Origin: Nitrosopumilus sp.
GTDB taxonomy: Archaea; Thermoproteota; Nitrososphaeria; Nitrososphaerales; Nitrosopumilaceae
DNA: 64,000 nucleotides
Assembly (NCBI GenBank): GCA_965249555.1
Contig: OZ252243.1
Coordinates: forward strand, 1,856,001-1,920,000
Reading direction: 5' to 3'
Part shown: one piece after another, positions 25,565-30,247 of the stretch
How the letters are laid out: each line of letters opens with the position of its first letter
Position numbering within the stretch: position 1 is the first letter of the stretch
Program-made: the position numbers and the translations under genes
Notes under the pieces: generated by a model
The model's input: only the letters and a program-made list of their open reading frames with translations
What the model was told of the DNA's origin: nothing
Database searches by the model: none

Positions 25565-26008
25565 CTATGTTAATCTAAAATCTTCTTTTACGGTATTTAG
25601 AACTACGTGAGTGATTGTATTTTCCACGTTTGAGATGGCTGTCAGACCCTTTACAAACTTACTTAGCTCGTCTCTTTCCTTGAATTTTGCTATAATTACC
25701 GTATCTGCTGAACCTGTAATGTCATAAACTCCACATACATTTTCAAATTCTGATATCTCATTTTCAATATCTTCAATTTTGTCATTTTTGGCAATAATTT
25801 CAATAATTGCAGTAAGTGAATAACCTAGTTTTTCATGGTCAATTATGGCTGTATATCCGCAAATGATATTTGCTTTTTCTAACTTTTTAATTCTAGATAA
25901 TATGGTGACAGTTGACATTCCAAGTTTTAATGCAAGCTGCCTAGCTGATAATCTCGCATCAACCATCAAATTTTTGAGAATCCTTTCATCTGTCTCATCT
26001 AACTTCAT
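25565..26008 (-). CDS. Lrp/AsnC-family transcriptional regulator
   Basis: LDETDERIL...DARLS...RIKKLE; YDITG. Confidence 0.9.
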   Translation of the reverse strand: MKLDETDERILKNLMVDARLSARQLALKLGMSTVTILSRIKKLEKANIICGYTAIIDHEKLGYSLTAIIEIIAKNDKIEDIENEISEFENVCGVYDITGSADTVIIAKFKERDELSKFVKGLTAISNVENTITHVVLNTVKEDFRLT

Positions 26009-26076: not shown

Positions 26077-26186
26077 TGTCTTTTAGTACTTATTTTTCAG
26101 ATTTAATACAAATACTGGATTTTATCGTCTTGGAGTTCCAGGAAGTTTGTCTTTTAGTACTTATTTTTCAGATTTAATACAAATAC
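26077..26186. repeat. Perfect 39-bp direct repeat separated by a 32-bp unique segment
   Basis: TGTCTTTTAGTACTTATTTTTCAGATTTAATACAAATAC at 26077-26115 and 26148-26186. Confidence 0.9.
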
Positions 26187-26201: not shown

Positions 26202-26429
26202 ATGGATGAAATTCAAAATCTTGTAGCAAAAGGTAGATCATTCTTGGAAGATGGAAAATTTGGTGATGCTCTTGCTTTCTTTGAACAAGCACTTCTTTTG
26301 AATCAGAATGATCCTGATCTTTGGAATTACAAGGGAACCGCACTTCGAAGTTTGGGAAGATATGAGGATGCAATGGACTGCTTTAACAAATCATTGGAAA
26401 TTGATCCTCGAGATAAACATGCATCTTGA
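26202..26429 (+). CDS. Small TPR protein
   Basis: Two TPR motifs. Confidence 0.85.
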   Translation: MDEIQNLVAKGRSFLEDGKFGDALAFFEQALLLNQNDPDLWNYKGTALRSLGRYEDAMDCFNKSLEIDPRDKHAS

Positions 26430-26689
26430 GGCTCTGGTCAATCTAGGTGATCTGACATAATATAGGGATGCGGATCTCTCTGAATTGAATTTCATGCTGA
26501 ACTTTCTCCATACAGATCACCAAAACTATACAGTACATATTTTGGGAAATTCCGACTTGATAGTATTCAAGAATTTTTTATATCACTTCTGACCAAGGGT
26601 TTTTCAAGGGGGTCGGGCAATCTTGAGAAGATCCATATTTGTCACTTCTGACCACTATCTATGCTAGATCACCAGAACTGACCAGAGCC
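26430..26689. mobile_element. MITE copy 1 (260 bp)
   Basis: TIR GGCTCTGGTCA..CT.GGTGATCT / AGATCACCAGAACTGACCAGAGCC; no transposase ORF. Confidence 0.9.
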
Positions 26690-27516
26690 AACAGTACCAT
26701 TACTGCATTCCCGATCTTGGAGAAGGCGGTGGAAAGAGGGCAGACCTTGTGGCATATTCTTTCAGGCCTGTAAACGGCAATGATATCACAAAACATGGTA
26801 AGGTAGATCCTACCATATGGTCTGACAAGGTAATTGCAGTGGAGGTGGAGACAGACCCGACAAAACACAAGGGACAGGTGTATATCAATTATGAAAAGAA
26901 CGCATCGCGCGGGATGGGTGTGTGGTTTGTCGTGTTTTCAGCAAAGCACAAGGAATATGTCATTGATGCCCTGGCAGAAAAAGACATTGGGACAGAGCTG
27001 TATGGTCTGGTCCTGGTTGATCCCCAAAGCATTGATTTCAAAAATGAAAAATATTCAGCCGCATCCCAATCCGTTGATGACATGCAGGATATGGTGGTAA
27101 AGGGAATTGGTACCGGATATGAGTCGGTACAGGGCATTGTAAACAAGTCAAATCTTACCACGTCGCAGGTCATGGCGTGTCTGCACTCTATGGAGAGGAG
27201 GGGAATTGTTGAAAGGTCTGGTGCGATACAGACTGTAACAAAGCAGTCCTTGGATCTGACTGGAACCCATAAGACCCAGACAAAAAAGGACACCTTTATG
27301 CTCAGTCCGGATGTTGTTGCAAAGGCATCCCCCGAACCCAATGAGGAGAAACCCGGCATGGAGAAATATTCCAACACCGACAATGTCGCACTGAAATTAT
27401 TCCTTGATGACGAGGATTTTGCAGATTATGATATAGTGCATGATGTGTTAAAATCACGCGGGTATGGTGTTAGAAGAAAAAAGAATGGCGGCGTCACACT
27501 GTACAAAATGGGATAG
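26690..27516 (+). pseudogene. 5'-truncated GC-richer gene: PD-(D/E)xK-like motif plus wHTH (plasmid/virus-like)
   Basis: Frame is open back to the MITE boundary (QYHYCIPDLG...RADLVAY...IAVEVETDP); visibly higher GC than the host. Confidence 0.6.
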
Positions 27517-27641
27517 AAATTTATAAGAAAATTTCTTGCTCCATACATCTCATGCAAAGTTAACAGAATTAGTTAGACCATTAGGCACCAAACATCATTT
27601 ATCGAAAATTTATAAGGCATAGGATGTATAGTTTACACAAT

Positions 27642-27785
27642 ATGGCATTAAGAGAGATTCTACCATTGGAAGAAAAGGATTGGAATGCACTAATAAATGA
27701 TTTAGAACAAGGTCAAACCGAAGAACAATCTGATTTCTTACAAGAGTCTCTTAAACATGCAAATAACCTCAAGATTTCTAGATAA
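27642..27785 (+). CDS. Putative antitoxin (47 aa, resembles DUF1778/TacA C-terminus; not in ORF track)
   Basis: MALREILPLEEKDWNALINDLEQGQTEEQSDFLQESLKHANNLKISR; ends 3 nt before the GNAT gene. Confidence 0.6.
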   Translation: MALREILPLEEKDWNALINDLEQGQTEEQSDFLQESLKHANNLKISR

Positions 27786-27788
27786 TAA

Positions 27789-28316
27789 TTGTCCAAGCCT
27801 GAAATTGATTTTGATAAAATAGTAGTCACACGTCTTAGTGAAACCACTGTTGGTATTGACAGCTTTAAGAATTCAAAACAAGAAATGGTTGATCATATTC
27901 AAAAGGAAGCACTTAGAGATCAACAGCTAAAAATTGGAACTACCTGGGTTTGGGTTTATGATAATAAAATTGCGCTGGGATATATTTCACTTGCAATGTA
28001 TTCAATAGATAAAAAAGACATTCTACACAATCAAGATGAATCAGCACAAAAATATCCCTATGGATCTATTCCTTCTTTATTAATCGGTCAAATTGCAACT
28101 CATCAGGATTATGAGTGTAATAAAATTGGACAATCCATGGTTTCTTGGGCAATTAAACAGGCATTTGAATATTCAAAAGAAGTTGGTTGTAGAACTGTTG
28201 CACTTCATCCACATGAAGATGTAATTGAGTGGTATGATAAGAAATTAAAATTTAAACATATCAAAAGAGACAACAAACAAGACATAATGTATTTCAACCT
28301 TCTGAAAAAATCTTAA
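27789..28316 (+). CDS. GNAT acetyltransferase of the AtaT/TacT toxin type
   Basis: GYISL, YPYGSIPSLLIGQIATHQDY..KIG, VGCRTVAL and WY motifs. Confidence 0.8.
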   Translation: MSKPEIDFDKIVVTRLSETTVGIDSFKNSKQEMVDHIQKEALRDQQLKIGTTWVWVYDNKIALGYISLAMYSIDKKDILHNQDESAQKYPYGSIPSLLIGQIATHQDYECNKIGQSMVSWAIKQAFEYSKEVGCRTVALHPHEDVIEWYDKKLKFKHIKRDNKQDIMYFNLLKKS

Positions 28317-28465
28317 TTTTTTTCGTTACTCTTGTATGTTTATGTTAAATTTATGACAAGTATGACATCAAAAACGCAACTACCAATATTTATCTTAGCA
28401 GAAAGTCACAAAAGAGAGCCATAATTCCACAGGATGTAAGGCAAACAATACTGGAGTTGACAGAA

Positions 28466-28638
28466 TGATGAACAAGACACAGCAAAACATGTTCAAACTG
28501 CAACTAGATTGGAATCATACTCATCAATGTATTGTCTGTTATAGGGAATTTGGATGTGATGGAAAGGAGCCACATTGTGCTACACCATTTGAAGAGCCTG
28601 CATTATGTGCAGATTGCCTTGATGCTGAAATTCCCTAG
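28466..28638 (+). CDS. Small virus-like zinc-finger protein (~57 aa; not in ORF track)
   Basis: MMNKTQQNMF...HQCIVCYREFGC...HC...LCADCL; coordinates approximate. Confidence 0.5.
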
Positions 28639-28689
28639 AGTGTCGGAGGAAATTGAAATGAAAAAACCACAGCAAAACATGTTCACCAA

Positions 28690-28798
28690 ATTTCTGTAAC
28701 GATAAAGTTACAGCCCCATTGAAGCATGAGACAGCTGAAACTCTGATGAAACAGCTTAACGCATTTCTGTAACGATAAAGTTACAGCCCCATTGAAGC
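28690..28798 (+). CRISPR. Orphan CRISPR mini-array: two identical 36-bp repeats and one 37-bp spacer (type I-G/I-U-like repeat)
   Basis: Repeat ATTTCTGTAACGATAAAGTTACAGCCCCATTGAAGC with a 7-bp hairpin CTGTAAC/GTTACAG and an ATTGAAGC 3' end; no cas genes in the window. Confidence 0.85.
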
Positions 28799-28933
28799 AT
28801 GGAAACCAATTCTACAATCACCATGATTATTGCATTTGTGGTTGCGGTAATAATGCTACTATCTGTGGGTGTAACTCTTGCATATGTAATCCATAATACT
28901 GATGCTCTCTATAGCATTAGAGGAAACAAATGA
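28799..28933 (+). CDS. Small single-TM protein (44 aa) starting immediately after CRISPR repeat 2
   Basis: METNSTITMIIAFVVAVIMLLSVGVTLAYVIH...; ATGA overlap with the next ORF. Confidence 0.5.
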   Translation: METNSTITMIIAFVVAVIMLLSVGVTLAYVIHNTDALYSIRGNK

Positions 28934-29676
28934 CTACACTAAAATTTGTCTCAAATAAAAAATGGCCACCTACAGATCGTAATAAATTCATGGACATGAG
29001 AGATGCACTGGAGAACATCAGATGTGCTATAAAATATTATAATGAGAAAAATTCATTCCACATGATAGGTGATGACTTTATCAGACATTATTCCCTCAAA
29101 GAATTACACGCAATCAACATCATAATTGAATTCCAGGCCCATAGGAGACGTGCAAAGATTTTTCCCTCCGAATATGAATCCCTCCAGGCGTTCTGTATAA
29201 AATGCAAAGAATTCAGACTATTCAATACAATTCCTCCTCATTCTAACATTGCCAATCCAGAATCAGTTCGGATGTACTCTCATTGTTATCATGCAGATAC
29301 AACCCACAATCTGACTCTCATCGAACAGAAGAAACATCAAAAAATTCTGGACACACCACTATCTCCAACAGCTACAATCAGCATAGGGCAGTTTATGGGT
29401 AGGTACTATAATATGAGAGATGCCATAAACATTAGGAGTTTTTATCTGAATTATCTGAAACCCTTGTCAAATATCCCTGTTGAGGATTTCTTTATCAATA
29501 TATCCATAAATGGAAAAACCCAACTGATGTGTCCTGCATGTCATAGAGTCTACAAAAGAAAAGATATGGCAGAAATTCACAATAAACATTTTTGGAATGT
29601 AAATGATTTTTTCATAGGATGCCAAAAGGGAGTGGAGCATGTAAGAAAACAAAAAATGGAGAAGAGTCATAGATGA
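28930..29676 (+). CDS. Hypothetical protein with two putative Zn-binding motifs (virus-like)
   Basis: CIKC...HCYH and CPAC...H...C motifs. Confidence 0.65.
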   Translation: MTTLKFVSNKKWPPTDRNKFMDMRDALENIRCAIKYYNEKNSFHMIGDDFIRHYSLKELHAINIIIEFQAHRRRAKIFPSEYESLQAFCIKCKEFRLFNTIPPHSNIANPESVRMYSHCYHADTTHNLTLIEQKKHQKILDTPLSPTATISIGQFMGRYYNMRDAINIRSFYLNYLKPLSNIPVEDFFINISINGKTQLMCPACHRVYKRKDMAEIHNKHFWNVNDFFIGCQKGVEHVRKQKMEKSHR

Positions 29677-29706
29677 GGATTGCAATAGTGGGAACAAGTA
29701 TTAGAT

Positions 29707-29856
29707 GGTCTGAGGGTTTACTATAATTTCACAAAAAAGCATAGTGCATTAAATGGAAAAACACCAGCAGAACAAGCTTTGATACAAGTTGATGGAAGAA
29801 ACAAATGGATTACACTAATTCAAAATGCCAGCTTATACAAAGAAAATATTGAATAG
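29707..29856 (+). pseudogene. 3' remnant of an IS6-like DDE transposase
   Basis: GLRVYYNFTKKHSALNGKTPAEQA...NKWITLIQNA, homologous to the C-terminal region of the 57860-58615 ORF. Confidence 0.8.
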
Positions 29857-29859
29857 TAT

Positions 29860-30117
29860 TTAATTTTCTAGTTTTGTTACTCTTGTCGTTAATGTAGCTA
29901 TATCTTCTCCATCAGTATGCAGTATGTCAAAAATATTAGGAATTATTTGTGTATCTCTTTTTACAGATTGTATGTTATTTTCTATTTTTTCTAATCCATG
30001 TTCAATATCATCTAGTCTTTTACAAGTATGAGAATGAACTTTGTTTAAACTTTCAGTTAGAGATTCCATGAATTTATTGAATTGTTTTATTGTAACTGGT
30101 TTGTCTTCACTGGACAT
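29860..30117 (-). CDS. Small coiled-coil protein
   Basis: Heptad pattern RLDDIEHGLEKIENNI...LTTRVTKLE. Confidence 0.6.
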   Translation of the reverse strand: MSSEDKPVTIKQFNKFMESLTESLNKVHSHTCKRLDDIEHGLEKIENNIQSVKRDTQIIPNIFDILHTDGEDIATLTTRVTKLEN

Positions 30118-30247
30118 ATCTCTATTACAGATTGTATATTATATAAACTCCAAAGTTGGTATGTATCCATGTGAATTGTTTTGTATTAAGAGAGAGAGAG
30201 TTTTCAGGGAATAGATTGTGCAGACATGTTTATTTGAATATAATAAA

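Follow-up and report, generated by a model that had tools for sequence, protein, structure and literature searches.

An apparent repeat-spacer-repeat unit of the host type I-G CRISPR system on a strain-specific MITE-bounded insertion in Nitrosopumilus

CRISPR mini-arrays on mobile genetic elements (MGEs) represent CRISPR immunity hired by the very elements it polices. In SPV1 and SPV2, portogloboviruses of the Sulfolobales, the mini-arrays hold one or two spacers on an element without cas genes, and their repeats match host arrays, with a presumed use of host Cas; they possess promoter-bearing leaders and spacers matching sister viruses (Medvedeva et al. 2019, PMC6858448). (Pro)phages carry mini-arrays without a leader as well as solitary repeat units (PMC6858448), which, like the Racr RNAs (PMC10651486; Camara-Wilpert et al. 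2023), lie among small MGE genes and match the subtype of the host (PMC6858448, PMC10651486). Racrs are solitary repeats, with no other repeat within 100 bp, and the term "type I-G" does not occur in the main text of that survey (PMC10651486). In the same archaeal phylum as the host studied here, the thaumarchaeal integrative-conjugative elements NCAV2-E1 and NitIsl-E1, large conjugative elements of Nitrosocaldus, carry stand-alone type I-B arrays of 69-96 spacers, whose repeats are identical to those of a cas-linked host array while the elements are devoid of cas (Krupovic et al. 2019, PMC6563490). [quoted passage not shown]

We analysed a window of 64 kb, that is, the whole stretch C1:1856001-1920000 of a single-contig 2.23-Mb genome (contig C1; positions without this prefix are counted within the window). 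The host organism is an ammonia-oxidising archaeon because archaeal AmoA is present in the genome (E 1.5e-117). The locus at 28690-28798 has the features of a genuine repeat-spacer-repeat unit of the host's own type I-G system, and it appears to reside on a strain-specific MITE-cargo-MITE element. It resembles the SPV arrays in its low spacer number, in the lack of cas on the element and in repeats that match a host array, and differs from them in having neither a leader nor a target that we could find, in its mesophilic ammonia-oxidising type I-G host and in a carrier without a virus hallmark gene. With the (pro)phage mini-arrays and the Racrs it shares the missing leader, the neighbourhood of small MGE genes and the match to the host subtype, but it is a full repeat-spacer-repeat unit with two repeats 37 nt apart. 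As in NCAV2-E1 and NitIsl-E1, the repeats are identical to those of a cas-linked host array and the element lacks cas; in contrast to them, the present array has a single spacer, is of type I-G and sits on an element of 4.35 kb, and its host is Nitrosopumilus-like. The mini-array shape recalls CreA, CreR and Cracr, yet the repeats are perfect, the cas locus offers no match, the sole partial match is a host Lrp/AsnC gene, and no cas or toxin promoter was seen to offer the PAM-proximal pairing of at least nine bases. Neo-CRISPR loci, which Nivala, Shipman and Church reportedly described in 2018, are likewise said to enclose a single new spacer between two copies of one repeat, at a distance from any leader; in those loci the duplicated "repeat" is reportedly an arbitrary genomic sequence, whereas here the duplicated unit is a bona fide CRISPR repeat.

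A leaderless mini-array on a mobile element is a known kind of locus, and the novelty lies in the group of hosts, in the CRISPR subtype and in a MITE-bounded carrier of very small size. As a marine-type ammonia-oxidising archaeon, the host comes from a group with few known viruses or plasmids; type I-G is unmentioned for such arrays in the literature compared; and the carrier is an insertion, not a virus. No paper joining Nitrosopumilus, CRISPR and "type I-G" was found in the library searched; the supplementary lists of the surveys of solitary repeat units may contain cases. With one natural guide of known sequence in a single-contig genome, the locus could serve as a test bed for whether a type I-G Cascade accepts outside guides, and a simple one because the host I-G system looks intact.

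Table 1. Features of the insertion, its surroundings and the host type I-G system
Feature	Position	Strand	Remarks
Spacer-like site in host Lrp/AsnC gene	25984-25998	-	nt +11 to +25 of gene 25565-26008
8-bp duplication CATCTTGA	26422-26429 (left); 30777-30784 (right)		
Left MITE copy, 260 bp	26430-26689		terminal inverted repeats GGCTCTGGTCA / TGACCAGAGCC
255-aa cargo protein	26749-27516	+	one relative (206 aa), 73% identical
53-aa ORF and 175-aa GNAT acetyltransferase	27624-28316	+	PF00583 E 1.5e-5; phrog_1758 E 1.2e-17
57-aa CxxC...CxxC orphan protein	28465-28638	+	directly upstream of array; no family match
13-codon ORF (MKKPQQNMFTKFL, then stop)	28658-28699	+	GGAGG 8 nt upstream
CRISPR repeat 1, 36 nt	28690-28725	+	repeat search; exact copy of ATTTCTGTAACGATAAAGTTACAGCCCCATTGAAGC
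Spacer, 37 nt	28726-28762	+	letters as in the first-pass annotation
CRISPR repeat 2, 36 nt	28763-28798	+	identical to repeat 1
44-aa single-helix membrane ORF	28799-28933	+	ATG directly after repeat 2
248-aa orphan protein	28930-29676	+	C2H2-like motif CPAC...H..H (by eye)
Presumed transposase C-terminus remnant (...HSALNGKTPAEQA...)	29700-29857	+	dispersed repeat in genus genomes
72-nt tRNA-like gene	30429-30500	+	called Leu(aag); inside insertion
Right MITE copy, 263 bp	30514-30776		same orientation as left
cas7g/csb1	flanks host I-G array		E 1.2e-24
csb2	flanks host I-G array		E 1.9e-55
cas3g	flanks host I-G array		E 2.4e-211
cas8g1/csx17	flanks host I-G array		E 3.6e-157
cas4g-cas1g	flanks host I-G array		E 7.1e-220
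cas2	flanks host I-G array		E 1.3e-8

The first-pass annotation, made from the window alone, had described two identical 36-bp repeats with a perfect 7-bp hairpin around a 37-bp spacer, with no evident leader and no cas genes in 64 kb. The repeats and the spacer were recovered exactly, and none of 100 dinucleotide shuffles of the window contained two repeat matches at up to 3 mismatches (Table 1). Each repeat is laid out as ATTT, stem CTGTAAC, loop GATAAA, GTTACAG, CCCC and the handle ATTGAAGC (4+7+6+7+4+8 nt), and the 7-bp stem with its 6-nt loop forms in both repeats in the minimum-energy fold of 28640-28830 (z = -2.37). For a type I-G repeat of Thioalkalivibrio, Csb2 is reported to cut 4 nt 3' of a 7-bp stem, leaving an 8-nt handle (PMC9638904); the 36-nt repeat with its 7-bp stem, the position 4 nt beyond it and the 8 nt that follow correspond to this description. 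An ATG stands directly 3' of both repeats, extending the direct repeat to 39 nt with a period of 73 nt, and the spacer contains an internal similarity of 19-20 nt (ATGAGACAGCT / ATGAAACAGCT). Since two-copy short direct repeats at 50-95-nt spacing form about 50 clusters genome-wide, it is the sequence of its repeat that sets the mini-array apart. The repeat matched none of the Rfam CRISPR-DR families at the gathering score or at E <= 1.

The annotation was borne out on the missing leader and, for the host I-G set and the cargo proteins, on the missing cas genes. When the 200 nt before the first repeat of the host array were compared with the sequence upstream of the mini-array, no likeness beyond 1 nt emerged, so that the leader with a promoter that precedes the first repeat of a type I-G array is lacking. 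None of the six host I-G Cas proteins had a tblastn match inside the 64-kb window, and no cas family was matched among the cargo proteins in the family search. With its one spacer and no cas on the element, the locus thus belongs with mini-arrays of one or two spacers.

The partner system is found in the same genome. The mini-array 36-mer occurs in 47 further copies at up to 3 mismatches, and an array of 48 repeats (at up to 8 mismatches) lies on the minus strand at C1:640019-643538, 1.24 Mb from the mini-array. Among these repeats, 44 are exact copies of the mini-array repeat, three differ by one mismatch and the last by 4; the 47 spacers measure 35-44 nt, a range that includes the 37 nt of the mini-array spacer. 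All six type I-G cas genes, each of full length, flank the array at C1:632963-645769 (Table 1). The repeat thus forms an array beside a complete I-G gene set, and the host system, judged by its genes, looks intact. The first-pass annotation had guessed at type I-G from the repeat layout and had postulated a host Cascade encoded elsewhere, to be sought through the repeat and cas8u/csb2; both turned up, the repeat being identical to that of a cas-associated array, and cas7g, csb2, cas3g, cas8g1/csx17, cas2 and cas4g-cas1g are all in the genome. Its term "orphan" is apt locally, yet not for the genome as a whole, where the partner system stands 1.24 Mb away. The reading direction of the host array is fixed by its degenerate last repeat and by the leader on the cas2 side, across a 250-nt gap to cas2 at the opposite end. 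The mini-array is read in the same direction, as the annotation had assumed, and therefore lies in crRNA-sense orientation, on the same strand as the 57-aa, 44-aa and 248-aa ORFs. At the trailer end of the host array (C1:640130-640767), three spacers are each present twice and interleaved, which shows an internal duplication of host-array units.

Beyond this genome, the repeat family was found in GTDB genomes as 15 stretches in 9 records, named Nitrosopumilus or Nitrosopumilaceae, and all of these stretches are arrays of at least 6 copies or contig-end fragments; no second mini-array was seen among the 15. Related arrays in other Nitrosopumilus records also adjoin I-G genes, and the nearest other repeat variants differ from the mini-array repeat at 3 positions. 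The exact repeat and a 30-nt part of it are absent from IMG/VR. One stretch (L034, OZ245003.1, 2473-2944) holds seven repeats of the same family with no I-G cas within its 8 kb and could be a short orphan array of a different Nitrosopumilus genome.

The mini-array is enclosed by two MITE copies in the same orientation, 100% identical over 215 nt, and the MITE has many whole or partial copies elsewhere in the genome. The 8-bp sequence CATCTTGA flanks the outer ends of the pair, and neither MITE has a target duplication of its own, delimiting an insertion of 4,347 bp (26430-30776). All five relatives examined lack the insertion. In each of them the sequence follows ours up to 26429 (26427 in L020), which is the stop of a 75-aa TPR gene, and continues 31 nt on with the homologue of window position 32336; in the closest relative (L019), CATCTTGA occurs once, at the stop of the TPR gene. 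From the outer-only duplication, the break of synteny in five of five relatives and the single CATCTTGA in L019 it follows that 26430-30776 entered as one unit. Like-oriented copies, an outer-only duplication and an empty site are the marks of a MITE-bounded composite or circle, and all three are seen here, the empty site being inexact because a second non-syntenic block (30785-32335) follows the insertion. The insertion could have arrived as a composite transposon, or it may have come as a circle of about 4.09 kb with one MITE that recombined with a MITE already in place. At C1:97392-100269 there is an element that shares the ends of the MITE and has an IS66-family transposase, and IS66 elements make 8-bp duplications. 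An initial reading of the 261-bp direct repeats as attachment sites at a tRNA was dropped in view of the inverted ends, the many genomic copies and the outer 8-bp duplication. Contigs from 3 DNA runs of one study cover the stretch and showed 0 differing letters in the pieces listed, which break at repeats; two backward joints in the run contigs lie inside MITE copies, with the letters between them unresolved, and the direct junction of those joints is absent from the assembly.

The 8-bp duplication, the MITE ends, the orphan genes, which include the two largest proteins, and the absence from five of five relatives support the interpretation of this 4.35-kb insertion as a small strain-specific mobile cargo. 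"Mobile cargo" was also the wording of the first-pass annotation, and its further epithet "virus-like" found no support: no hallmark virus gene was found and PHROGs match only the acetyltransferase. More generally, family searches found no hallmark virus, plasmid-replication, integrase, capsid or transposase gene inside the insertion.

The block 30785-32335, which separates the insertion from a 193-aa TPR gene and is not syntenic with the relatives, contains two genes with the Lrp/AsnC ligand-binding domain alone (176 and 79 aa), and its homologue lies elsewhere in the chromosome of the relatives. The intergenic region from which the Lrp/AsnC gene and the 75-aa TPR gene diverge contains, some 250 bp away from the insertion, a perfect direct repeat of 39 nt with a period of 71 bp (26077-26115 and 26148-26186). 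Both of its copies align to a single stretch of L019, which makes the repeat a tandem duplication relative to L019, in a promoter region. In L025 (C1:2206836-2209413), the central point of the MITE (window-equivalent 26562/26563) is occupied by an IS110-family transposase gene of 291 aa. This is the one verified copy, and split MITE halves elsewhere suggest more, which suggests that an IS110 element might target this MITE.

The GNAT acetyltransferase is the only cargo protein with a family match. Together with the 53-aa ORF, it is a possible toxin-antitoxin pair by its layout, and it is the only toxin-like module found where the first-pass annotation had counted two. Atlas matches of the 255-aa protein, scoring at most 0.88 and usable as a lead only, point to winged-helix regulators, and the protein is probably a winged-helix DNA-binding protein on that lead. 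The AlphaFold models have pLDDT values of 48.3 for the 255-aa and 40.3 for the 248-aa protein. The 248-aa protein was found in none of 60 genus genomes, and among 5.8 billion proteins it matches itself alone. Loci with the 248-aa or 255-aa proteins were not found in IMG/VR, the alignment of the 255-aa protein retrieved no related loci from JGI metagenomes and GTDB genomes, and no related element with a mini-array at the same position was found, making the locus a singleton. Between the stop of the 57-aa gene and the mini-array lie 51 nt. The 13-codon ORF that begins there opens with 28 nt sharing 89% identity with the start of the 57-aa gene and has its stop codon inside the stem of repeat 1, which suggests that the array might have taken the place of most of a paralogue of the 57-aa gene. 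Downstream, the stop of the 44-aa ORF overlaps the start of the 248-aa ORF (ATGA), and the fragment at 29700-29857 is taken by us to be a transposase tail. The tRNA-like gene at 30429-30500 carries a C at position 33; a tandem duplication of 109 bp, comprising its upstream region and its first 15 nt, comes before it. It is one of four short tRNA-like genes of 71-72 nt (the others at C1:92747-92818, C1:2185020-2185091 and C1:58883-58953), of which three were called Leu(aag) and one Leu(tag), beside normal Leu tRNAs of 86-87 nt.

Because the mini-array repeats are letter-for-letter those of the host I-G system, the element is probably able to borrow the host machinery. We tentatively favour, at somewhat below an even chance, an element-borne leaderless mini-array that uses host Cascade against a competitor not yet sampled. 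The mini-array would be transcribed by read-through from the upstream 57-aa gene, and host Csb2 would cut 8 nt before the end of each repeat, at 28717/28718 and 28790/28791, if the layout reported in PMC9638904 applies. The product would be a crRNA of 73 nt (28718-28790) in which the ATTGAAGC handle and the 37-nt spacer are followed by a 28-nt hairpin tag. Loaded into the host I-G Cascade, it would direct Cas3g to destroy DNA with a matching protospacer, most likely that of a competitor, a virus or plasmid from the same host population and as yet unsequenced, and the element would thereby exclude rivals through host immunity. We infer this scheme from the identical repeats, the apparently intact cognate system, the sense orientation and the apparently mobile carrier; the same model has been proposed for virus-borne mini-arrays (PMC6858448), and it agrees with the stand-alone arrays on thaumarchaeal elements that share the host repeats (PMC6563490).

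The search for a target did not provide the competitor. In IMG/VR, neither exact matching nor matching with N at every sixth base, as the first-pass annotation had advised, nor three codon-degenerate frames gave a hit, and the inter-element competition it had envisaged found no target in the collections searched. No match came from JGI metagenomes, INPHARED and PLSDB returned chance matches only (E >= 0.1), and the spacer was absent at up to 3 mismatches from 200 family genomes and 120 genus genomes. The host genome itself, the other place where the annotation had proposed to look for a protospacer, contains no further match, and the spacer is not self-derived because the best other ungapped site reaches only 25/37. 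The spacer is also absent from the 47-spacer host array and from 553 unique spacers of related arrays. In the reverse direction, none of the 553 spacers matched the window at 24 or more identities, host-array spacers did not match the insertion, and whole arrays did not match a phage collection. The thaumarchaeal mobilome is poorly sampled. A spacer of a related Nitrosopumilus array (L031, at 5163) matches C1:402728-402767 at 35/40 in an Mrp/NBP35-type housekeeping ATPase gene, with the flank TAC. The use of host Cascade is thus opposed by the lack of a protospacer among the sequences searched, the singleton locus, the absence of a promoter or leader of its own and the absence of a hallmark MGE gene.

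The same observations might be explained by a neutral by-product of host adaptation or recombination without a selected function, a reading that is itself on the unlikely side and nearly as likely as the use of host Cascade. By one route, off-target Cas1-Cas2 integration would have added one spacer to a solitary repeat on the element; by the other, recombination would have copied a repeat-spacer-repeat unit from a host array. For the first route, off-target "neo-CRISPR" formation in E. coli is the precedent that Nivala, Shipman and Church are said to have provided in 2018. A recent origin in this lineage is suggested by the 100% intact repeats, given that the nearest variants differ at 3 positions, and a neutral by-product would suit the missing leader, the singleton locus without relatives and the apparent 57-aa-gene paralogue interrupted by the array. 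The 13 nt before repeat 1 agree at 11/13 with the end of the last spacer of the host array, a value equalled by 12 of 5000 random 25-mers against any of the 48 contexts, and this hints at copying. However, the spacer itself occurs neither in the host array nor among the 553 related-array spacers, and both the sense orientation (about 1/2) and the placement before an ATG (about 1/64) would have to be accidents. Perfect repeats are as compatible with a very recent accident as with selection, and an accidental origin would leave later use by the element possible.

More doubtful, and in our judgement improbable, is an RNA that serves anti-defence or regulation and not attack, either by titrating Csb2 or Cas7g in the manner of Racrs or, as with Cracr and CreA, by parking Cascade at a host site that matches in part and is left uncut. 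The host has an intact-looking I-G system and no spacer against the element, and there are published cases of repeat mimics and crRNA-like RNAs on MGEs (PMC10651486; bioRxiv 10.1101/2024.10.29.618823), but two perfect repeats with a full-length spacer are not the solitary or degenerate repeat of those cases. At the cas locus (C1:630000-646500), the best spacer prefix is 9 at up to 1 mismatch, which is the chance level. The CreA-like role on toxin modules contemplated in the first-pass annotation lost its footing, since no seed-type match of at least 11 nt lies near the module; within 5 kb, the only matches of that length are the spacer itself and a site in the Lrp/AsnC gene.

This site, at the 5' end of the gene and 2.7 kb from the array, is the sole candidate for such parking. 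It agrees with spacer positions 1-15, on the PAM-proximal side, at 14/15, and no other site in the genome has a spacer-prefix match of at least 14 nt at up to 1 mismatch. Within +-5 kb, a prefix match of 15 was reached by 17 of 2000 random genomic 37-mers and by 1 of 1000 shuffled spacers, with 12 as the highest value among the 47 host spacers, all by a metric that was chosen after the match had been seen. The PAM-side flank is TAG, against the TTN reported for a type I-G system, which may not be the PAM of this one; the match is kept in one of five relatives; and the nearness of the site has no explanation, as a crRNA acts in trans. We also considered whether the spacer might derive from an Lrp/AsnC homologue; the other three paralogues agree with spacer positions 1-15 at 8-9 of 15. 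That the crRNA of the element regulates the host Lrp/AsnC gene, with I-G Cascade parked there without cutting, is accordingly a long shot. If true, a mobile element would rewire a host regulator through the host CRISPR machinery, and this would be a new target class because cas or toxin genes are the targets of all crRNA-like regulators known so far.

The repeats might lastly be RNA-processing signals, the Csb2 cut leaving the 44-aa/248-aa message with an 8-nt 5' end and tying the expression of cargo genes to host CRISPR activity, as could be read from the ATG after both repeats, the second of which opens the 44-aa ORF leading into the 248-aa start, from the lack of a Shine-Dalgarno-like sequence before the 44-aa ORF where neighbouring starts have GGAG(G)/AGAGGA (by eye), and from a repeat and a protein gene on one transcript in RacrIC1/AcrIC5 (PMC10651486); but the idea is purely inferential, the odds of the ATG falling there by coincidence are 1/64 and codon 9 of the 44-aa ORF is a second possible start, so that we hold it to be highly improbable.

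The genome contains further CRISPR loci, whose repeats differ from those of the mini-array in the window. A second CRISPR-Cas locus comprises a 4-kb array with a 30-nt repeat (C1:1609811-1613821) and a region (C1:1615392-1623987), with cas1, cas6 and a cas3-like gene. A mini-array of three repeats and two spacers with a third repeat type (...ATTACAATAAAGATTGAAAC) lies at C1:1607946-1608112, 1.7 kb from the second array and near cas1/cas6, and it may be a cas-linked crRNA-like regulator. Apparent targets of two host-array spacers at C1:1610599 and C1:1611825 were discarded because the sites fall inside the second CRISPR array. Two spacers of the I-G array resemble sequences inside the second array at 27/36 and 26/35, and both arrays possibly hold spacers against the same invader.
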